A stretch of DNA of 64,000 nucleotides from Candidatus Kaiserbacteria bacterium (GTDB taxonomy: Bacteria > Patescibacteriota > Minisyncoccia > Phycocordibacterales > SBAW01), in NCBI GenBank assembly GCA_009691465.1, contig SICK01000001.1:24705-88704 (forward strand), in the 5' to 3' direction. Shown piece by piece: positions 1-53,926 of this stretch. Both the position numbers and the translations under genes were made by a program. Positions within the stretch are counted from its first letter, which is position 1, and every line of letters begins with the position of its first letter. The notes beneath the pieces were generated by a model that worked only from the letters and a program-made list of their open reading frames with translations, did no database searches and had not been told where the DNA came from.

Positions 1-2
1 AA

Positions 3-104
3 GTCACCATACTGATTTCCGGCGCGGTGCAGGTGACCGGCACCCAGCAGTCGCAATTTAATCTGCAAACCTCGGTGACCCAGCGCCTCTACGACGAACT
101 ATGA
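3..104 (+). CDS. 3' end of an ORF truncated by the window edge (unknown, probably part of the pilin-like cluster)
   Basis: Frame 3 is open from the window start (..VTILISGAVQVTGTQQSQFNLQTSVTQRLYDEL*). TGA at 102-104 overlaps the next start (ATGA coupling). Confidence 0.3.
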   Translation, partial: VTILISGAVQVTGTQQSQFNLQTSVTQRLYDEL

Positions 105-667
105 TACAGAAAATACAACAGGGATTTACGCTGATAGAGACGCTCATCGCGGTGCTTATACTCACCACCGCAATAACCGGGCCGCTCACCATTGCCTCCA
201 AAGGGTTGACCGCAACGCTCATCGCCAAGGACCAGATCTCCGCCTTTTATCTCGCCCAGGACGCGGTCGAGTATGTGCGCTTTTTGCGCGACAGCGCCTG
301 CCTTGCCGCCGGCGCGCCGGTCGGCGGTTGTGCGGCAGAGGTCTGGCTCTCAAGTTTGACCGCGTGCACCAGCGCCGGTGGTGGCACGGCCTGCTACTTC
401 GACTCCCTCGCCCAGAACCCGGCTACCCCGGCAACCTGTGCGGGCGATTGCCCCGTTATGCGCTACGACACTGCGTCGCACGCATTCAACTACAACGGCT
501 CGGCCACACCAACACCGCAAAAGTTTACCCGCACGGTGACGATCAACAACGACCCGTCCGGTCCCGCTCCGGACGAGGCTATACTGACCGTGACGGTGAC
601 CTGGGCCAACTTGGCGGGGATAACCCACACCGCAGTAGTGCGCGAAAATATACTCCGATGGCAATAA
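101..667 (+). CDS. Pseudopilin / type IV pilin-like protein with prepilin-type N-terminal cleavage/methylation motif
   Basis: N-terminus MIQKIQQG|FTLIETLIAVLILT is a class III signal (G/FTLIE plus hydrophobic helix). The stop overlaps the next gene. Confidence 0.75.
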   Translation: MIQKIQQGFTLIETLIAVLILTTAITGPLTIASKGLTATLIAKDQISAFYLAQDAVEYVRFLRDSACLAAGAPVGGCAAEVWLSSLTACTSAGGGTACYFDSLAQNPATPATCAGDCPVMRYDTASHAFNYNGSATPTPQKFTRTVTINNDPSGPAPDEAILTVTVTWANLAGITHTAVVRENILRWQ

Positions 668-1206
668 AAAAACACAACAGAGGGTTTACGATTTTCTTTG
701 CGATGCTGGCCGGGGGACTCGCACTCTCTATCGGTGTCGCCATATATGACCTGACGGTCCGCGAGCTCGAGCTCTCGGCCACCGCCACCCAGTCGCAATA
801 TGCAATCTACGCCGCCGACACGGGGGTCGAGTGCGCGCTGTATTGGGACTACAAGTGCGCCGGTGGGGGATGCATGGACGGCAGTGCGTTTGCAACCTCC
901 AGCGCCTATCTCGGAGCGGGTTCCGGGGTGCTGTGCAACGGCCAGGACGTGGCCGCGGCGGGGACTCCACCGACTCCGTTTAATGCTCCGCCGGCAAACT
1001 GGATCCCGTGGAGCATAGAAAACAGCACCTCTGCGGCGACCACCACCTTTTATATTTCGTTTGCGCCGGCGCAACCCTACTGCGCCAAAGTCGAGGTGAT
1101 GAAAAGTGGCGATCCCATCCAGACCACCGTTATCTCCCATGGCTTTAATACTTGTGCCCCGGGCAGTACCAACCAACTGGAGCGCGCGCTGTACGTGAGC
1201 TACTAG
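658..1206 (+). CDS. Minor-pilin-like protein (PilX-N-like hydrophobic N-terminus)
   Basis: Internal ATG at 658 of track ORF 328..1206 gives MAIKKHNRGFTIFFAMLAGGLALSIGVAIYDL. The longer version overlaps the upstream pilin gene out of frame. Confidence 0.55.
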   Translation: MAIKKHNRGFTIFFAMLAGGLALSIGVAIYDLTVRELELSATATQSQYAIYAADTGVECALYWDYKCAGGGCMDGSAFATSSAYLGAGSGVLCNGQDVAAAGTPPTPFNAPPANWIPWSIENSTSAATTTFYISFAPAQPYCAKVEVMKSGDPIQTTVISHGFNTCAPGSTNQLERALYVSY

Positions 1207-1215
1207 GGGCTATAG

Positions 1216-3255
<2,040 letters not shown>

Positions 3256-3269
3256 TGTAGTATTAGCCC

Positions 3270-3608
3270 ATGATTTCGAAGGAGGAGGTACTCAAACTCG
3301 CCGAGCTGGCGCGGCTCAAGATTGGGGATGGGGAGGTTGAGGGACTGCAAAAAGATATTTCGAGCATTTTGGAGTACGTGGGACAAGTGAGCGCCGTCCA
3401 GCCGCAAGGAGAGACCTTTCTGTCGGACAGCAAGGACTCACCTTTCGGCCTACACACCGTGATGCGCGAGGACCTGCCTCGACTTGCGTCGGGCAAGGCG
3501 GGTGTGCCCACCCCGGTGCTCGGCGAGCGCGAAGCGCTTTTGAATGCGTTCCCCACGCGCGAGGGCGACTTCAACGTGGTCCGGAAGATAATCCAAAAAG
3601 ATGAATAA
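3270..3608 (+). CDS. gatC: Asp/Glu-tRNA(Asn/Gln) amidotransferase subunit C
   Basis: ISKEEVLKLAELARLKI...LQKDISSILEYVGQV is typical GatC. It overlaps gatA by 8 nt. Confidence 0.85.
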   Translation: MISKEEVLKLAELARLKIGDGEVEGLQKDISSILEYVGQVSAVQPQGETFLSDSKDSPFGLHTVMREDLPRLASGKAGVPTPVLGEREALLNAFPTREGDFNVVRKIIQKDE

Positions 3609-5010
3609 ACTGAACGAGCTCACTATCGCAGAAGCATCAAAAAAACTCGCTGCGGGCGAGATAACCGCCGTGCAGTTGGCGCAGGCGTGTCTGGATGAGA
3701 TTGCAAAAAGAAATCCGGAGCTGAACGCTTATCTGGAAGTGTTTGATGATGTGCTAGAGCAAGCCAAGAAAGCCGACGAACGCCGCGCCGCGGGGGAGAG
3801 TCATCCTCTGTTGGGAATTCCGCTCGCTGTAAAAGACAATATTTTGATACAGGGGCGTGTCGCGTCGGCCGCGAGCAAGATGCTCGAACAGTATGTCGCG
3901 ACCTATGACGCAACGGTGATAAAAAAACTCAAAGAAGCCGGGGCAGTATTCCTCGGTCGCACCAACATGGACGAATTTGCGATGGGCGGCAGTAACGAAA
4001 ATTCGGCTTTTGGTCCTGCAAAAAATCCGCATGATGAAAGTCGAGTGACCGGCGGCTCATCGGGCGGTTCGGCGGCGGCGGTTGCTGCGCACCTCTGTTT
4101 GGGAGCATTGGGGAGCGATACGGGCGGCTCGGTGCGCGAGCCAAGCAGTTTTTGCGGTGTGGTCGGGTTTAAGCCGACCTACGGCGCAGTGTCGCGCTCG
4201 GGGTTGATGGCGATGGGCTCGTCTCTCGACCAAGTAGGCCCTATTACTAAAACGCTGGAAGATGCGGAGATATTGTTTGACACTATCCGCGGCAAAGACC
4301 CGTTGGACAGTACATCCGTAGACCCGGAAGATCTCAAATCACAAACCTCAAATAACAAACGCATCGGCGTGCCGCGCCACTTATTTAAAGAGGGGATAGA
4401 CCAAGACGTGCTTGAGCGGTTTGAAGCGTCGCTCAAAAAATTGGAGGGGCAGGGCTACGAGCTGGTTGATATCACCCTGCCATCCTCGCCGCTGGCGCTC
4501 GCCCTGTACTACATCATCATGCCCGCCGAAGCATCGAGCAACCTGGCGCGTTTCGACGGGGTGCGTTACGGATTGTCGCTCAAAGGCTCGTCGCTAATCG
4601 AAGATTATGCAAAAACGAGAGGGGAAGGTTTTGGCCCCGAGGTGCGCCGCCGCATCATGCTCGGCACCTATGTGCTTTCGGCCGGCTACTACGACGCCTA
4701 CTACGGCAAGGCCATCGCCGCACGCGCGCTTTTGCGCAAAGAATACAATGATGCGCTCAAGACGCTTGCGTGCATTGCAACACCCACGGTGCCCTCGCCC
4801 GCATTTGCTTTGGGAGAAAAGTCCGACCCGCTGGCTATGTATCTCGCCGATATTTTTACCGTTTCGGCAAACCTTACCGGCAATCCGGCCGTCTCGGTCC
4901 CGATGGGGACCGTAGAACGCGGAGGAAAAGCCCTGCCGGCAGGGTTGCAACTCACCGCTGCGCATGGGGATGAAGCGGCGCTCTTTGTGGTAGGAAAGGC
5001 GTTAGAATAG
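3601..5010 (+). CDS. gatA: Asp/Glu-tRNA(Asn/Gln) amidotransferase subunit A
   Basis: 469 aa. Amidase signature GGSSGGSAAAVAA and GSDTGGSVREPSSFCGVVGFKPTYG. Confidence 0.95.
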   Translation: MNKLNELTIAEASKKLAAGEITAVQLAQACLDEIAKRNPELNAYLEVFDDVLEQAKKADERRAAGESHPLLGIPLAVKDNILIQGRVASAASKMLEQYVATYDATVIKKLKEAGAVFLGRTNMDEFAMGGSNENSAFGPAKNPHDESRVTGGSSGGSAAAVAAHLCLGALGSDTGGSVREPSSFCGVVGFKPTYGAVSRSGLMAMGSSLDQVGPITKTLEDAEILFDTIRGKDPLDSTSVDPEDLKSQTSNNKRIGVPRHLFKEGIDQDVLERFEASLKKLEGQGYELVDITLPSSPLALALYYIIMPAEASSNLARFDGVRYGLSLKGSSLIEDYAKTRGEGFGPEVRRRIMLGTYVLSAGYYDAYYGKAIAARALLRKEYNDALKTLACIATPTVPSPAFALGEKSDPLAMYLADIFTVSANLTGNPAVSVPMGTVERGGKALPAGLQLTAAHGDEAALFVVGKALE

Positions 5011-5015
5011 AGGTG

Positions 5016-5603
5016 ATGCAAAACGGCGTCGATTTTTTGAACCTCGAGTATCTGCTCGTGCGCTCGTACGAGTTTGTAGCGAGCTTCCATGGGACACTAG
5101 GGCAATTCCCAGAGTGGGTAGGGGGAGTGGTATATTTTGTACTTGTGTTAGGCATGGTGCTGTCGTTTATACTCCTGATTTTTATTGTCTACTCCCAGAT
5201 CAAGCTTCTGCAGACCGAGCATGCCGGGTTCCACGCGATGGAGGCCGAGAGCCACGAAGCGCACGACCCCGAAGTAGAGTCGACCGGCAAGAACGACCGG
5301 TGGGAGCGCATTGTCGAGCTTGCCGCCTCGGCAAACGAAAGCGAGTGGCGCCGCGCGATACTGGAGGCCGACATCATGCTCGGGGACGTGTTGTCAGACC
5401 AGGGCTATGAGGGAGCGAGCGTCGGCGAGCAGCTGAAGATGGCCAACCCGATACAAATGACCACGCTCGACTTGGCATGGAAGGCGCACAAAGTGCGCAA
5501 CGACATCGCGCACGGGGGCGAGCGCTACAAGCTTGAGGAACGCGAGGTCCGCGTGGCCATAGACTACTTTAAACGCGTGTTTGAAGAATTCGCTGCGATT
5601 TAG
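5016..5603 (+). CDS. Membrane-anchored hypothetical protein with C-terminal helical domain carrying an RNDIAH (R-x4-H) motif
   Basis: TM helix VVYFVLVLGMVLSFILLIFIV. C-terminal AWKAHKVRNDIAHG. TAGAAT at 5003-5008 lies 7 nt before ATG 5016. Confidence 0.6.
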   Translation: MQNGVDFLNLEYLLVRSYEFVASFHGTLGQFPEWVGGVVYFVLVLGMVLSFILLIFIVYSQIKLLQTEHAGFHAMEAESHEAHDPEVESTGKNDRWERIVELAASANESEWRRAILEADIMLGDVLSDQGYEGASVGEQLKMANPIQMTTLDLAWKAHKVRNDIAHGGERYKLEEREVRVAIDYFKRVFEEFAAI

Positions 5604-5606
5604 CCA

Positions 5607-5642
5607 AACGAAAAGGCACCCTACTGGGTGCCTTTTCGTTAT
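5607..5642 (+). terminator. Rho-independent terminator
   Basis: AACGAAAAGGCACCC-TACT-GGGTGCCTTTTCGTT perfect hairpin directly after the stop at 5603. Confidence 0.65.
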
Positions 5643-5643
5643 C

Positions 5644-5718
5644 TGGTTGCGGGGGCGGGAATTGCACCCGCGACCTCAAGGTTATGAGCCTTGTGAGCTA
5701 CTACTGCTCCACCCCGCT
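5644..5718 (-). tRNA. tRNA-fMet (CAT), initiator-like
   Basis: AGCGGGGTGGAGCAG...CTCATAA...CCCCCGCAACCA. 1:72 is unpaired (A:A), A11:T24 is present, and the acceptor arm closely resembles the E. coli initiator. CCA is encoded. D-loop and T-loop are atypical. Confidence 0.85.
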
Positions 5719-5745
5719 ATAAAAGGTATTCTAGCACAGTGCGGG

Positions 5746-5819
5746 TGTCGGCGGAAGGACTTGCACCTTCGACCTTGGGTTTATGAGTCCCATGCTCTAA
5801 CTACCTGAGCTACGCCGAC
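5746..5819 (-). tRNA. tRNA with CAT anticodon (elongator Met or Ile2)
   Basis: GTCGGCGTAGCTCAGGTAGTTAGAGC..CTCATAA..GAAGGTGCAAGTCCTTCCGCCGACA cloverleaf. G1:C72 is paired. CCA is not encoded. Confidence 0.85.
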
Positions 5820-5856
5820 GTGAGCTTAGGCTAGCATTTTTACCGTCGCTCTTCAA

Positions 5857-5994
5857 TTACGATACGGTCCCGACAATCGTCCGCGCAAAGTCGAGGATGA
5901 GATTGAGGACGGAAATGAAGAACGTGATGATGAGCGTCAAAAACGCCAGCAAAAAGTTGAGGATGGTGTTGAGCAGGGAGGTGATAGCGTCCAT
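5857..5994 (-). CDS. Small hydrophobic protein (45 aa), below the track cutoff
   Basis: MDAITSLLNTILNFLLAFLTLIITFFISVLNLILDFARTIVGTVS*. TATACT (6001-6006, minus strand) lies 6 nt upstream of the ATG. Confidence 0.35.
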   Translation of the reverse strand: MDAITSLLNTILNFLLAFLTLIITFFISVLNLILDFARTIVGTVS

Positions 5995-6016
5995 GCAGAT
6001 AGTATAGCAAACGTTG

Positions 6017-6090
6017 CGCGAGAGACGGGACTTGAACCCGCAACCTCTGCCGTGACAGGGCAGCGCTCTAACCAGTTGAGCTACTCCCGC
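6017..6090 (-). tRNA. tRNA-Asp (GTC)
   Basis: GCGGGAGTAGCTCAACTGGTTAGAGC..CTGTCAC..TTCAAGT cloverleaf. Confidence 0.9.
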
Positions 6091-6128
6091 AACTGCGGGT
6101 CGAACAAGGCGATTTTAGCGCAAAAACG

Positions 6129-6512
6129 CTATTTTTCCAACGAGGAGGGCAGGACACCCTTTTGTTCGCAGAAATTACGGAACTCGACTTTAAGACGGTC
6201 GAGCTCCTCGTCGGTCATGTCCTCGGCATCAATAAGGATGTTGCGTGCAGCATCGTTGGCCTTGATAAGTTCGTCGAGCTTAAGGTGTATCGCATGCGCA
6301 TCGCGGTTCTGGGTGTTTTGTATCAAAAACACCATCAAGAAGGTCAGCACGGTGGTGCCCGTGTTGATGATGAGCTGCCACGTGTCAGAGAAGTGGAATA
6401 TCGGTCCGCACAGCGCCCAGATGACGATGATAAAAAACGCCCATGCAAACGCCCACGAACTCCCCATCAACTGACTTGCTTTATGCGCCGCCTTCCGGAA
6501 CACGTCGTTCAT
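6129..6512 (-). CDS. Low-affinity iron permease family protein
   Basis: FSDTWQLIINTGTTVLTFLMVFLIQNTQNRDAHAIHLKLDELI matches the family signature as I remember it. Confidence 0.75.
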   Translation of the reverse strand: MNDVFRKAAHKASQLMGSSWAFAWAFFIIVIWALCGPIFHFSDTWQLIINTGTTVLTFLMVFLIQNTQNRDAHAIHLKLDELIKANDAARNILIDAEDMTDEELDRLKVEFRNFCEQKGVLPSSLEK

Positions 6513-7029
6513 ATACCGGTAGTGTAACCCGGAACTTCAGTGCCCGTATAGCCGGCAGTGGGGGGAGCGCAGGGAGGCTCGGCAGGTGGATACTAATCGC
6601 GACACGAGCCGAAGTGTAGGCCAGGTAGGAGAGGAAGAGTACATAGGGCAGCGACATCGCCACAAAGAATATCCACAGCCGTGTCGTCGGGGCGGCAAAC
6701 ATGTACAGTGCGCTGCTTATGAGCAGGGGCACAAAGGTCCGGTAGAGGGCATTGGTGTCAAACAGGGGAGTAACGCCGGCCTTATCCTCTGCGTAGAGCC
6801 AATAGAGAAAGGCAAATCCTCTCCACGTGGCATATACAGCGCTTACGAGGCATAGGGTCCACAGTGGCGTGTGGTACGAGCGCAGGACCAACAGCGCCGC
6901 AAAAAGCTGTGCGGCCGCCAGACCGCCGGCGAGCGGCAAGAACAGCGCAAGACGCGACGCGCGATAGGTCTCGCGCATCCAAGCAATAGGAGTGAATCGG
7001 GCTTCCATAAAAACATATCGTACCGCCAT
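6481..7029 (-). CDS. Hypothetical polytopic membrane protein
   Basis: 182-aa ORF with several hydrophobic helices. It overlaps the downstream gene by 32 nt. No recognised motif. Confidence 0.5.
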   Translation of the reverse strand: MAVRYVFMEARFTPIAWMRETYRASRLALFLPLAGGLAAAQLFAALLVLRSYHTPLWTLCLVSAVYATWRGFAFLYWLYAEDKAGVTPLFDTNALYRTFVPLLISSALYMFAAPTTRLWIFFVAMSLPYVLFLSYLAYTSARVAISIHLPSLPALPPLPAIRALKFRVTLPVYERRVPEGGA

Positions 7030-7050
7030 GAGTATGGAGACGCTGTGTGA

Positions 7051-7079
7051 TTGAAAATCTTGCTAAAATGGGCTACTCT
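7051..7079 (+). promoter_or_regulatory. Sigma70-like promoter for the tRNA-Thr pair (and possibly prfB)
   Basis: TTGAAA (7051-7056), 17-nt spacer, TACTCT (7074-7079). The tRNA starts at 7090. Confidence 0.45.
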
Positions 7080-7089
7080 CGCTTGGTAA

Positions 7090-7162
7090 GCCGAAGTAGC
7101 TCAGATGGTAGAGCAGCTCCATGGTAAGGAGCAGGTCGCCGGTTCGATCCCGGCCTTCGGCT
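7090..7162 (+). tRNA. tRNA-Thr (GGT)
   Basis: GCCGAAGTAGCTCAGATGGTAGAGC, anticodon loop ATGGTAA, T-arm GCCGGTTCGATCCCGGC. Confidence 0.9.
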
Positions 7163-7180
7163 CCCGATGTAGTGTCGGAA

Positions 7181-7256
7181 GCCAGCGTAGCTCAGTTGGT
7201 AGAGCATCTCACTCGTAACGAGAAGGTCGTCGGTTCAATCCCGACCGCTGGCTCCA
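7181..7256 (+). tRNA. tRNA-Thr (CGT)
   Basis: GCCAGCGTAGCTCAGTTGGTAGAGC, anticodon loop CTCGTAA, CCA encoded. Confidence 0.9.
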
Positions 7257-7281
7257 CGTTCAACAGGTTCAGTGTAAACAA

Positions 7282-8148
7282 GTGGAAAAGGAACAAAAAG
7301 AGGAAAGAATAAAAGAGATAGAGGCGGCTATGCAAACCGCCGACTTTTGGAGTAATCCGGCGGAGGCCCAGCAACTGATTAAAGAGCTGCAGGATCTGAA
7401 GACGGAGGCCGAAGGCGGTTCGGCGTATGACCGCGGCGGGGCGATACTGTCTATGGTTGCGGGCGCCGGGGGTGACGATGCCGAGGACTTTGCCCGCATG
7501 CTTTTTGAGATGTACCGGAAGTATTTTGAAAAGCGGGGATGGAGCGCAAAGGTGTTGCACGAAAACCGCAACGACCACGGCGGATTTCGCAACCTTTCGG
7601 TAGAAGTGGATGCAAAGGGCGCCTACCGCACGCTTAAAAACGAGTACGGCGTCCACCGCTTGGTGCGCCTTTCTCCCTATAATGCCTCACAAAAGCGCCA
7701 CACCTCGTTTGTGTTGGTCGAGGTCTTGCCGGTCATCGACAAAGTCGCCGCTATTGAGCTCGACGAAAAGGAGTTGGAGATCACGGTGGCGCGCAGTAGC
7801 GGCCCCGGCGGGCAGAACGTCAACAAGCGCGAGACCGCGGTGCGCATCGTGCATACGCCGACCGGTATCAGTGCCCACGTCGACGGCGAGCGCACGCAGG
7901 GCGCCAACAAAGAAAAAGCACTCGCTATCGTGAAGGCAAAATTACTCCGCCGGCTCGAAGAAGAGCGTAAGGAAAAGATATCCGACCTGTCAGTCGCCAC
8001 GGGCAAGATAGAGTGGGGGAGCCAGATACGCTCCTATGTCCTGCACCCCTACAAATTGGTCAAAGACCACCGCAGTGGCGTAGAGGTCCGCGATGCCGAA
8101 GGCGTACTCGACGGCAACCTCGAACCCTTTTTGGAAAAATCAGAATAA
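7282..8148 (+). CDS. prfB: Peptide chain release factor 2 (compact form)
   Basis: GGQ motif [22 protein letters not shown]2-type region [22 protein letters not shown] start 25 nt after the tRNA. Only 288 aa. Confidence 0.85.
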
Positions 8149-8170
8149 GGTACAATAAGGAGCGTTAAAA

Positions 8171-8851
8171 ATGATCTACTACGACCGCGTATCCAAAATA
8201 TACGCTGACAACTCTGTTGCACTCGAAGACGTCAGCTTCTCCGTAGAGCCGGGAGAGTTCGTCTCCATCGTCGGGCACTCCGGCGCGGGCAAGACGACGC
8301 TGGTCAAGATGCTCCTGGCCGAAGAAAAGCCCTCCAGCGGCGCGGTCTTTTTTGAGTCCATCAATATCCACGAGGTGCCGCTGTCCAAAATGGGCGCTCT
8401 GCGGCGCAAGATAGGCACGGTCTTTCAGGACTTCCGGTTGCTCCCCAACAAAACCGCGTACGAAAACATCGCCTTTGCGATGGAGGCGGCGGGCCGCAAT
8501 GAAGAAGAAATACACTCCGACGTGCCGCACGTGCTCGAGTTGGTCGACCTGGGCGACAAGATGAACAATTTTCCCGACGAGCTCTCCGGCGGCGAGCAGC
8601 AGCGCGTTGCTATCGCACGCGCCATCGTCAACCAGCCCGACGTCATCGTGGCCGACGAGCCGACGGGCAACCTCGACCCGGTCAACACGTTCGAAATCGT
8701 GCAAATCCTCAAAAAAATCAACGACCTCGGCACCACCATCATTTTGACCACCCATAACAAAGGCGTCATCGACGCACTCAAAAAACGCGTCATCACCATG
8801 GACCGCGGCAAGGTCATCCGCGACGATAGGGAAGGAAAGTATATACTGTAA
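8171..8851 (+). CDS. ftsE: Cell division ATP-binding protein FtsE
   Basis: Walker [10 protein letters not shown], signature [14 protein letters not shown], Walker [21 protein letters not shown] upstream. Confidence 0.9.
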
Positions 8852-8853
8852 CT

Positions 8854-9783
8854 ATGTTCAACTGGGTACTACTCAAGCGGGTGTTTCGGGCGGGGATACT
8901 CGACTTCTCGCGCAATGCGTTTGTCTCCTTTGCCTCCATCCTTGTCATGACCGTGACGCTCTTTGTGGTGGGGCTCACCGTCTTTGCCGGCGTGATACTC
9001 GGCTCGGCTCTGCAGGAGTTGCGCGACAAAGCAGACATCAACGTCTACTTCGTCCAGTCTGTCGCCGAGGACCGCATCCTCGAGATGAAGGCCTCGCTCG
9101 AAGCCCTGCCCGAGGTCTCCTCCGTGCAGTACCTTTCGCATGACGAGGCGCTCGCCGCGTTCCGTGAGCGGCACAAAAACGACCAGCTGACACTCAACGC
9201 TCTGGAAGAGTTGGGGGACAACCCGTTCGGCGCGGTACTCAACGTCAAGGCGAAAGACCTCTCCCAGTACGAGTCCATCGCGGCGTTCTTGCAGGACCAG
9301 CAGTCGCAGGACAGTGGCTCGGTCATCGACAAGATCAACTTCTATGACGAACAGCATCGCGCGGCGCTCGCCCGGCTCGAGCTCATCACCGACTCCTCAC
9401 AGCGGCTTGGGTTTATCATCATCGCTCTGCTTATCATCACCACCATCGCCATATCCTTTAATACCCTGCGGCTCGCCATATACACCAGCCGCGACGAGAT
9501 ACAAGTGATGCGGCTCGTCGGCGCGGGCTCCTTTTATATCCGCGCGCCCTTTATGGTCGAGGGTGTGCTCTACGGACTGGTTGCCGGCATCGTAACCCTG
9601 CTCCTCTTCTACCCGCTTGCGTACTGGCTCGGCACCTCGACCGGCAACTTCTTCGGCGGCGTCAATATATTTACCTACTACACCGGGCACTTCCTCTTCT
9701 TTTTCGCGCTTATTCTTGGCACCGGCGCGCTCATCGGCGCCATCGCCAGTTGGCTTGCGGTCAGGCGGTATCTCAAGATATAA
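8854..9783 (+). CDS. ftsX: Cell division permease-like protein FtsX
   Basis: Directly follows ftsE. N-terminal TM, periplasmic domain and three C-terminal TM helices (MRLVGA motif). Confidence 0.85.
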
Positions 9784-46254: not shown

Positions 46255-46556
46255 CTAGGAGCGCGTTGAACAGTAGCCTCACCCGCAAGGGTGGGGAGGA
46301 AAGTCCGAGCTCTCATCCGCCTTCGGGCGAGATAACAAGGTAGCAGGTAACCCCTGTCGTACGCTTTTTGCGGGCGTAAGAGGTGCGAACAGAGACGAGT
46401 CCCGCCGCAAGGCGGGAGTGAAACGGCAAAATCCTTACCCGGGAGCAAGGCCGTGCCGTGTCGCAAGACATGGAGTGCCGCTAGAGCCCCACAGCGATGT
46501 GTGGCCCAGATAAATTACTGTTTACAACAGAACTCGGCTTACAGACGCGCGCGCAG
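46255..46556 (+). ncRNA. rnpB: RNase P RNA (bacterial type A)
   Basis: Conserved GGAGGAAAGTCCGAGC (about 46296-46310), GTGAAACGG, GGAGCAAGGCC and ACAGAACTCGGCTTACAG (about 46527-46544). Ends are approximate. Confidence 0.88.
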
Positions 46557-46562
46557 TATGTG

Positions 46563-53454: not shown

Positions 53455-53529
53455 TGGTGTCCCCGGCAGGAATTGCACCCACATCTACCCCTTAGGACGG
53501 GGCTGTTCTATCTATTGAACTACGGGGAC
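53455..53529 (-). tRNA. tRNA-Arg (CCT)
   Basis: GTCCCCGTAGTTCAATAGATAGAAC, anticodon loop GTCCTAA, T-loop TGCAATT, CCA encoded. Confidence 0.85.
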
Positions 53530-53570: not shown

Positions 53571-53852
53571 ATGGATGCGGATTTGGAGGAGTTAAAGCGG
53601 CAGATTGAGCGGCTCGAGAAGACGACTACCGAAACCAACCGGTCGGTGCACAAAATGCGTCGCTCCCAGCGCCGGCAGACGATACTGCGCGTGCTGTGGT
53701 GGGTGGTAATCTTTGGGATCAGCGCCTATACGTACTTGACCTACGTGCAGCCCTACGTCGACCAGATGATGAGCGCCTATGGCAATGCCAAAGACTTTCA
53801 AGTGCAGGTCCAGGACTTTTTTGCCCAGTTTGGGCACAAGACGGCAAACTAG
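53571..53852 (+). CDS. Small coiled-coil plus TM protein
   Basis: TGcTATAAT (53559-64) lies 6 nt before the ATG. LEELKRQIERLEK...VLWWVVIFGISAYTYLTYV. Confidence 0.55.
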   Translation: MDADLEELKRQIERLEKTTTETNRSVHKMRRSQRRQTILRVLWWVVIFGISAYTYLTYVQPYVDQMMSAYGNAKDFQVQVQDFFAQFGHKTAN

Positions 53853-53853
53853 G

Positions 53854-53926
53854 TGCTTGGGGCCGGGGTCGAACCGGCGACATCTTCCTCTTCAGGGAAG
53901 CGCTCTACCAACTGAGCTACCCAAGC
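53854..53926 (-). tRNA. tRNA-Phe (GAA)
   Basis: GCTTGGGTAGCTCAGTTGGTAGAGC, anticodon loop CTGAAGA. Confidence 0.9.

Follow-up and report, generated by a model that had tools for sequence, protein, structure and literature searches.

In an ordinary transfer RNA (tRNA), G18 of the D-loop inserts between bases 57 and 58 and hydrogen-bonds to U55 or pseudouridine 55 (Ψ55) of the T-loop, and G19 pairs with C56; G18, U55 and Ψ55 are textbook near-invariants of tRNA. Here we describe three tRNA genes that depart from this rule in a 64-kb stretch of a Candidatus Kaiserbacteria genome (assembly GCA_009691465.1, contig SICK01000001.1, positions 24,705 to 88,704; hereafter the window, meaning the whole 64,000-nucleotide stretch that was analysed). 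In all three, G18·U55 is replaced by A18·G55 and G19:C56 is kept. They are likely to be working tRNA genes of the candidate phyla radiation (CPR, Patescibacteria) with an alternative but structurally equivalent elbow, and we rate the A18/G55 elbow as a natural variant, new as far as searched, of a known T-loop motif. Our literature search, with most subscription journals outside it, returned no A18/G55 tRNA elbow and no description of such a T-loop in CPR or phages.

In canonical tRNA, C61, A58, G18, R57 and the G19-C56 pair are stacked without interruption, with G18 in contact with U55, and among tRNA modifications Ψ55 has been called the most universally conserved (PMC7912444). The closest described departures from this scheme are specialised tRNAs. 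Desulfitobacterium hafniense tRNA-Pyl occurs naturally in a bacterium and, like the tRNAs reported here, has G55, together with a conserved U54·A58 pair and A57; it is without G18G19 and T54-Ψ55-C56, hence without a canonical 19:56 pair, and is a single specialised tRNA with a compact core, a 5-nt D-loop and a 3-nt variable loop (PMC1851642). The tRNA-Pyl-type features (5-nt D-loop, 3-nt variable loop, one-base acceptor/D junction and 6-bp anticodon stem) are absent from our three tRNAs, which have D-loops of 7–9 nt, variable loops of 4–5 nt and standard junctions. The non-proteinogenic tRNA-Gly of Staphylococcus, which serves cell-wall synthesis, has U18U19 or C18U19 and no U55C56 (PMC4574755). 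It resembles our tRNAs as a bacterial tRNA deviating at elbow positions; whereas it has lost 18, 19, 55 and 56 altogether, the variant tRNAs keep G19:C56, have a matched 18/55 combination and include an initiator. A matched A18·G55 with G19:C56 kept is found in neither tRNA-Pyl nor the Staphylococcus tRNA-Gly. The eukaryotic initiator, with A54 and A60, shows that an initiator can have a T-loop signature of its own, but it differs at other positions, keeps U55 and G18, and the A18/G55 swap is not limited to initiators.

Further parallels come from outside tRNA. The generic T-loop motif is found in RNase P RNA and ribosomal RNA too. UGNRA accounts for 88.7% of the T-loops of flavin mononucleotide (FMN) and cobalamin riboswitches, in which CGNRA also occurs; UGNAA makes up about 80%, and UGHAA was the best performer in a genetic screen (bioRxiv 10.1101/2022.12.26.521914). 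In these riboswitch loops the base between loop positions 4 and 5 is A in 99.96%, and this intercalated adenine is held by two hydrogen bonds to the sugar edge of the loop-position-2 G; among T-loops, the UUCRA of tRNA stands out as the exception (bioRxiv 10.1101/2022.12.26.521914).

Three tRNA genes with A18 and G55

ARAGORN called 13 tRNA genes in the window, and all 13 lie above the Rfam RF00005 gathering score of 29 bits. The T-loop reads T54-G55-C56-A57-A58 in three of them and TTC(G/A)A in the other ten. Positions 18 and 19 in the two CAU tRNAs were set by Infernal alignment to the tRNA consensus. The three genes and their elbow bases are as follows.

5644..5718, minus strand: Met1, initiator-type tRNA-Met (CAU), called by ARAGORN; Rfam 60.3 bits over 5647-5718
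5701..5702, minus strand: D-loop A18 (5702) and G19 (5701) of Met1, by Infernal alignment, AGUAGUA against the consensus AaUGGUA
5662..5666, minus strand: T-loop core of Met1, T54 (5666), G55 (5665), C56 (5664), A57 (5663) and A58 (5662), by direct reading
5746..5819, minus strand: Met2, the second CAU tRNA, called by ARAGORN; Rfam 63.1 bits
5801..5802, minus strand: D-loop A18 (5802) and G19 (5801) of Met2, by Infernal alignment
5761..5765, minus strand: T-loop core of Met2, T54 (5765), G55 (5764), C56 (5763), A57 (5762) and A58 (5761), by direct reading
53455..53529, minus strand: tRNA-Arg (CCU), called by ARAGORN; Rfam 55.7 bits over 53458-53529
53512..53513, minus strand: D-loop A18 (53513) and G19 (53512) of tRNA-Arg (CCU), by direct reading, in a register that agrees with the orthologue alignment
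53473..53477, minus strand: T-loop core of tRNA-Arg (CCU), T54 (53477), G55 (53476), C56 (53475), A57 (53474) and A58 (53473), by direct reading

By direct reading the T-arms are GCGGG-TGCAATT-CCCGC in Met1, GAAGG-TGCAAGT-CCTTC in Met2 and GTGGG-TGCAATT-CCTGC in Arg-CCU. The D-loops are AGTAGTA, AGGTAGTTA and AATAGATA, respectively; Arg-CCU has a 4-nt variable loop, and the 3' CCA is encoded in Met1 and Arg-CCU and not in Met2, which begins with G1:C72. The bases for G19:C56 and T54·A58 are present in all three. Within the window, A18/G55 occurs in 3/3 of these tRNAs against 0/9 of the other parsed tRNAs (Fisher p = 0.0045), and ARAGORN found no further CAT or CCT tRNA in the 64 kb.

Met1 shows the traits of an initiator: a CAU anticodon, a 1:72 mismatch (A1·A72) and A11:U24 in a GAGC/GCTC D-stem, the last being an established feature of bacterial initiators. 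Its anticodon stem, CAAGG/CCTTG, pairs A29:U41, G30:C40 and G31:C39, so that two rather than three G:C pairs stand next to the loop. Among the matches listed in the survey below, genes of the Met1 type are present in many CPR loci, and CPR initiator orthologues have either A1·A72 or C1·A72. Neither A1·A72 nor the two-G:C stem is tied to one kind of T-loop in these initiators, and most of them, whichever elbow they have, share the two-G:C stem. These are therefore lineage traits, separate from the elbow swap.

Met2 is either an elongator tRNA-Met or a tRNA-Ile2: C29:G41 and base 32 fail to separate the two, in a comparison that contained no CPR tRNA-Ile (GAU). The class was found in at least 69 genome-contig loci. 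Its anticodon arm in the window (5780-5792, TGGGA-CTCATAA-ACCCA) has an A·A mismatch at 31:39; relatives have A31 facing either A39 or G39, and thus conserve the mismatch.

The sequence-only reading of this stretch had reported TGCAA T-loops in three tRNAs and TTCGA or TTCAA in the other ten, and direct reading, ARAGORN and Rfam bear this out. It had also proposed that both elbow partners changed together, with G18G19 lost from two of the three tRNAs. The coupled change in the D-loop stood; the loss of G18G19 from two did not, as all three have A18/G55 and keep G19. The GG of the Met2 D-loop (AGGTAGTTA), which had been taken for G18G19, falls at positions 15-16 (5804-5805) in the Infernal alignment, with A at 18. 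The A1·A72 mismatch and two G:C pairs ascribed to Met1 were confirmed by direct reading. The description of three clean cloverleaves, one of them initiator-like, also holds, with Rfam scores of 55.7–63.1 bits, and the genes are probably functional. Finally, the suggested covariation of the D-loop partner with position 55 was found to be near-absolute across 935 tRNAs; it concerns position 18 only, 19 being unchanged.

Covariation and recurrence of the swap

We collected loci (contigs, given as L-numbers) in pattern scans of genome, viral and metagenome contigs. The CAU pattern, a CAU tRNA with a TGCAA T-loop and an unconstrained D-loop, was run on species-representative genomes and on viral contigs and matched at least 120 contigs in each; the per-locus counts that follow are among the matches listed. 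For covariation we took all ARAGORN tRNAs in the collected loci and parsed 935 with good stems. Among these were 292 A18/G55, 560 G18/U55, 3 G18/G55 and 6 apparent A18/U55 tRNAs. All six of the last kind are mis-assigned long D-loops that contain GG, which leaves no credible A18/U55. The tRNAs matching neither search pattern, and so not picked by their T-loop, gave 61 A18/G55, 551 G18/U55, 1 G18/G55 and the same 6 mis-assigned cases (Fisher p = 3e-76, uncorrected for relatedness; none of the covariation p-values takes account of shared ancestry).

The reverse scan, in which an A18-type D-arm (TGGAGCAGTAGTAGCTC) was fixed and the T-loop left free, returned G55 in 53/53 tRNAs and U55 in none. 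ARAGORN called 46 of them, with 44 TGC(A/G)A loops, one TGCAA shifted by a base in the call and one CGCAC. It missed seven more clear alternative-elbow tRNAs, which we read by eye and which all have TGCAA. The leftovers were 11 chance matches in coding sequence and 2 apparent tRNAs whose anticodon loop carries an insertion. Annotation is affected: alternative-elbow genes receive lower scores than ordinary tRNAs, and some escape detection.

In register the A-G dinucleotide matches the canonical G-G, mostly 2–3 nt (rarely 4) before the D-stem. Base 57 follows the swap: alternative loops have A there in 95% of cases, canonical loops G in 76%, and the 298 alternative loops divide into 283 TGCAA and 15 TGCGA. 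The swap spans 24 anticodon families and, among CAU tRNAs, more than 100 sequence clusters, while the closest pairs of alternative and canonical CAU tRNAs (CPR initiators) differ at 4/58 non-loop positions. It follows from these three observations that the swap emerged, or was reversed, on many occasions. Yeast SUP4oc tolerates none of the single mutations at G18-U55 or G19-C56 (PMC4117946), and the near absence of 18/55 intermediates fits this intolerance.

Clear half-switched G18/G55 tRNAs were seen only at L018 3673-3748 and L021 280-356, in metagenome-assembled genomes of Acutalibacteraceae and Chthoniobacter, respectively. Both are non-CPR initiators with a canonical G18G19 D-loop but a TGCAA T-loop, and could be true intermediates or assembly errors; the third G18/G55 case is ambiguous. 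A further T-loop, CGCAC(T/A)T, accompanies an A18-type D-loop (AGTTAGTTA or AGTAGTA) at L277 1262-1338, L278 678-754 and L326 14152-14224. With C at both 54 and 58, this variant cannot form the T54·A58 pair. The genes at L277 and L278, which belong to the window's closest relatives, are tRNA-Phe GAA; the tRNA-Phe of the window itself (53852-53926) is canonical.

The genome contigs that carry a CAU tRNA with the TGCAA T-loop are mostly Patescibacteria/CPR. By record title, among the matches listed, 85 are CPR, 13 unclassified bacteria and 22 other taxa, and three of the last group (L003, L009 and L058) are phage-like arrays of 20-40 tRNAs. The Arg-CCU pattern with a TGCAA T-loop matched 33 metagenome contigs. 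Loci labelled CPR or unclassified that hold both CAU tRNAs, an initiator and one of the CTCATAA type, are, with the state of the initiator given first and that of the other (elongator) second, alternative/alternative in 11 cases, alternative/canonical in 10 and canonical/alternative in 28 (among the matches listed). CAU tRNAs of a third class, whose anticodon loop is TTCATAA, are alternative in 1/14, and non-CAU tRNAs of these loci in 5/121; as the loci were chosen through their CAU tRNAs, such enrichment figures are indicative only.

Isolates account for three contigs among the matches listed, and a full gene was present in two: a single CAU tRNA with A18/G55 at L085 4124-4198 (Euryhalocaulis caribicus JL2009) and at L118 4526-4600 (Marinobacter sp. 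M1N3S26), both possibly on prophages. The pattern match in the third, L064 (Paracoccus), proved to be a tRNA fragment and not a gene.

In viral contigs the commonest carrier, among the matches listed, is an initiator-like tRNA that starts with U1, and many other isotypes carry the swap too. In the dense tRNA arrays of three metagenome contigs nearly every tRNA is of the A18 / TGC(A/G)A type (14/15 in L279, positions 1-9772; 7/7 in L275; 4/5 in L269), across a wide range of isotypes with a run of five Arg isoacceptors among them. The only open reading frames (ORFs) of L279 matched in PHROGs and Pfam encode Sir2 and DUF559, no relatives of its Sir2 protein appeared in the viral-contig scan, and the arrays may be of either phage or cellular origin. 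We also queried 50,697 phage records, with one phage alternative tRNA by BLAST and with 54 viral-contig alternative tRNAs, joined, by megablast. The six phage records parsed (Caulobacter CcrSC, Stenotrophomonas QDWS359, Synechococcus S-CRM01, Erwinia pEa_SNUABM_47, Roseobacter DSS3P8 and crAss cr60_1) all had canonical loops. In viral contigs L298 and L310, initiator-like tRNAs with an A18 D-arm seem to be broken past the anticodon stem, perhaps by an anticodon-loop intron, and were not called by ARAGORN.

Elbow structure and competing explanations

The loops of the variant tRNAs, TGCAA followed by TT or GT, fit U-G-N-R-A plus two further loop bases, and the partner adenine covaries with the G at loop position 2, as in a UGNRA T-loop. 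A UGNRA-type T-loop with an intercalated adenine is the most likely structure for these tRNAs. A18 would intercalate between A57 and A58 and bond to the sugar edge of G55, like the donated adenine of the riboswitches. As T54·A58, G53:C61 and G19:C56 are kept, the elbow would preserve its outer face and the tRNA its L-shape. That outer face is the surface touched by RNase P, the ribosome and IF3.

The variant elbow stands between two designs. It shares with the canonical one the cloverleaf, a 7-nt T-loop, the pairs T54·A58, G53:C61 and G19:C56, and a purine at 57, and its D-loop dinucleotide is in the same register; it differs from the canonical one in A18, G55 and a strong preference for A57. 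Having no U55, it also admits no Ψ55, and position 55 presumably bears no other modification. With the generic T-loop (UGNRA/YGNRA, as in the FMN and cobalamin riboswitches) it shares the UGCAA loop, an adenine available for intercalation and the bulged bases 59 and 60; unlike it, the motif sits in a tRNA, and the adenine is followed by the G that forms G19:C56. We know of no structure of such a hybrid, a UGNRA T-loop with an adjoining G19:C56 pair in a tRNA.

If the alternative but equivalent elbow is real, a large bacterial radiation and many phages translate, initiation probably included, with tRNAs that lack G18 and U55, and a riboswitch-style T-loop design is used in tRNAs for translation. 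Such tRNAs would provide a natural experiment on the purpose of Ψ55 and TruB, and on the roles of shape and base identity in elbow recognition. The two-base signature could flag phage or CPR tRNAs in metagenomes, and the combination G18A + U55G + G57A suggests itself as a design rule for engineered tRNAs that escape T-loop modification.

Several points weigh against structural equivalence as we propose it. The geometry and the presumed expression of the genes are read from sequence, and the geometry is borrowed from riboswitch T-loops, in which the adenine comes from another kind of partner loop. Canonical fMet or Arg-CCU genes are possible elsewhere, as 64 kb of the genome were covered. The p-values ignore shared ancestry, so that independence rests on the 24 anticodon families and more than 100 clusters. 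Lastly, pure structural equivalence leaves the enrichment in CAU tRNAs and phage arrays unexplained.

The genes could instead be pseudo-tRNAs or silent copies, with canonical fMet and Arg-CCU genes elsewhere doing the work. Their Rfam scores, the lowest among the short-variable-loop tRNAs of the window (55.7-63.1 against 63.7-70.7 bits), and the 64-kb coverage would be in keeping with this, but two consensus mismatches would account for the lower scores, and the cloverleaves are intact. Moreover, 15 Arg-CCU orthologues (14 distinct, the window and L248 copies being identical) have compensatory two-sided changes in 14/21 stem pairs, around an invariant D-loop (AAY-AGATA) and T-loop (TGCAA.T). 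This pattern indicates purifying selection on a working Arg-CCU tRNA and argues strongly against pseudogenes. A copy in L263 is 100% identical over 53457-53529, or 73/75 bases of the Arg-CCU gene. The variant genes are conserved though their flanks, which are syntenic with relatives, have diverged to 65-79% nucleotide identity, and no locus among the matches listed combines a canonical with an alternative initiator. Pseudogenes, which the sequence-only reading had named as an objection, are very unlikely indeed. Its other objection, an error of sequencing or assembly, is excluded by the recurrence of the identical two-site change in hundreds of independent assemblies from varied projects and methods. 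Recent transfer from phages would fit the frequency of similar tRNAs in viral contigs, but the nearest neighbours of the CPR alternative tRNAs are canonical tRNAs of CPR (4/58 differences) and not the alternative ones of phages, which mostly start with U1, and the window is ordinary chromosome with ligA, gatA, pyrG, groEL, ftsZ, lepA and others. Taken as one explanation, artefact or recent transfer is extremely improbable. A weakened or open elbow, with no true 18-55 contact and a specialised or non-ribosomal role like that of the Staphylococcus tRNA-Gly, has precedents in natural tRNAs without the standard elbow, namely that tRNA (PMC4574755) and D. hafniense tRNA-Pyl (PMC1851642). Such an elbow would not call for an A at position 18 that covaries with G55 and A57, nor for keeping G19, C56, T54, A58 and G53:C61; in addition, the Met1 type is the sole initiator-type tRNA at a conserved syntenic site across many genera (among the matches listed). 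We consider an open elbow quite improbable.

A different question is why the swap exists, for which a selective reason is plausible. It may have been selected for the altered view that it offers to factors that read the elbow, through independence from TruB and Ψ55, through altered binding of the N-terminal domain of IF3, which holds the elbow of initiator tRNA (PMC5037330), or through escape from tRNA-targeting nucleases or defence systems. This explanation is compatible with the structural one, and it would make sense of the enrichment of CAU tRNAs in CPR loci against 5/121 alternative non-CAU tRNAs (among the matches listed), of the many isotypes that carry the swap in phage tRNA arrays, where it is common, and of arrays that are nearly all switched, such as L279 and L275. 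Against it, no partner factor came to light, the swap occurs in initiators and elongators, so that IF3 alone is insufficient, the outer G19:C56 platform is unchanged, and the enrichment estimates are drawn from CAU-selected loci. Selection by elbow-reading factors is therefore possible, though we doubt it. A bolder form of the idea takes A18·G55 as a selected "second standard" that frees tRNA from Ψ55 and TruB and alters recognition by elbow-binding proteins (the IF3 N-terminal domain, nucleases, defence). If true, it would explain the concentration in the initiator and other CAU tRNAs of CPR and the frequent use by phages, and the L279 and L275 arrays would be a tRNA pool physically distinct from that of the host; we think it unlikely. 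One candidate reader of the elbow, the C-terminal OB (Trbp111-like) domain of MetRS, which might have co-evolved with the elbow, was rejected, as the Trbp111-tRNA co-crystal shows the 3' CA end bound and not the elbow (PMC11286949).

Genomic context in the window

Met2 and Met1 lie directly downstream of a canonical tRNA gene that serves as an internal control.

6016..6090, minus strand: tRNA-Asp (GTC), canonical, with G18G19 and TTCAA

This gene is probably the first of one Asp-Met2-Met1 transcription unit, with a promoter-like site upstream at 6140-6112 on the minus strand. On the other side of the unit, between Met1 and the convergent ORF 5013-5603, there is an 11-bp hairpin (AAAAGGCACCC...GGGTGCCTTTT) with a T-run at about 5604-5640. 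The hairpin resembles a bidirectional terminator; a scan for consensus terminators did not flag it.

The window is ordinary chromosome. Its ORFs include NAD-dependent DNA ligase (ligA), GatA, a release factor, FtsEX, CTP synthase (pyrG), BipA, RNase J, GroEL, MurJ, LepA, a class I aminoacyl-tRNA synthetase, TsaD, FtsZ, thioredoxin reductase, LexA and a sortase. Several kilobases align at 65-79% nucleotide identity to contigs labelled Adlerbacteria, Patescibacteria group, Paceibacterota and Saccharibacteria, the last label being probably generic; the stretch thus probably belongs to a Paceibacteria-like lineage within the CPR. Exact look-ups of its GatA and GroEL proteins matched no record. The order Gly-CCC, Arg-CCU, Phe-GAA around 53.1-53.9 kb is kept in metagenome contigs. 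No TruB or TrmA domain was found in the 40 window ORFs scanned, a result that concerns the window only and says nothing on the whole genome.

The 3' CCA is encoded in 5/13 tRNA genes of the window (Met1, Arg-CCT, Gly-CCC, Thr-CGT and Ser-GGA), and genes with and without it are mixed even inside one cluster. A class A RNase P RNA at 46258-46557 (plus strand) scores 109.5 bits against a gathering score of 100 and is reduced, with 300 nt for a model of 367 positions; it coincides in this genome with variable tRNA elbows. The release-factor ORF at 7282-8148 (plus strand, 288 aa) starts directly after tRNA-Thr (7181-7256) and matches the C-terminal half of the PCRF domain and the RF-1 domain only. 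The protein may be shortened, or a different frame may encode its N-terminal part.

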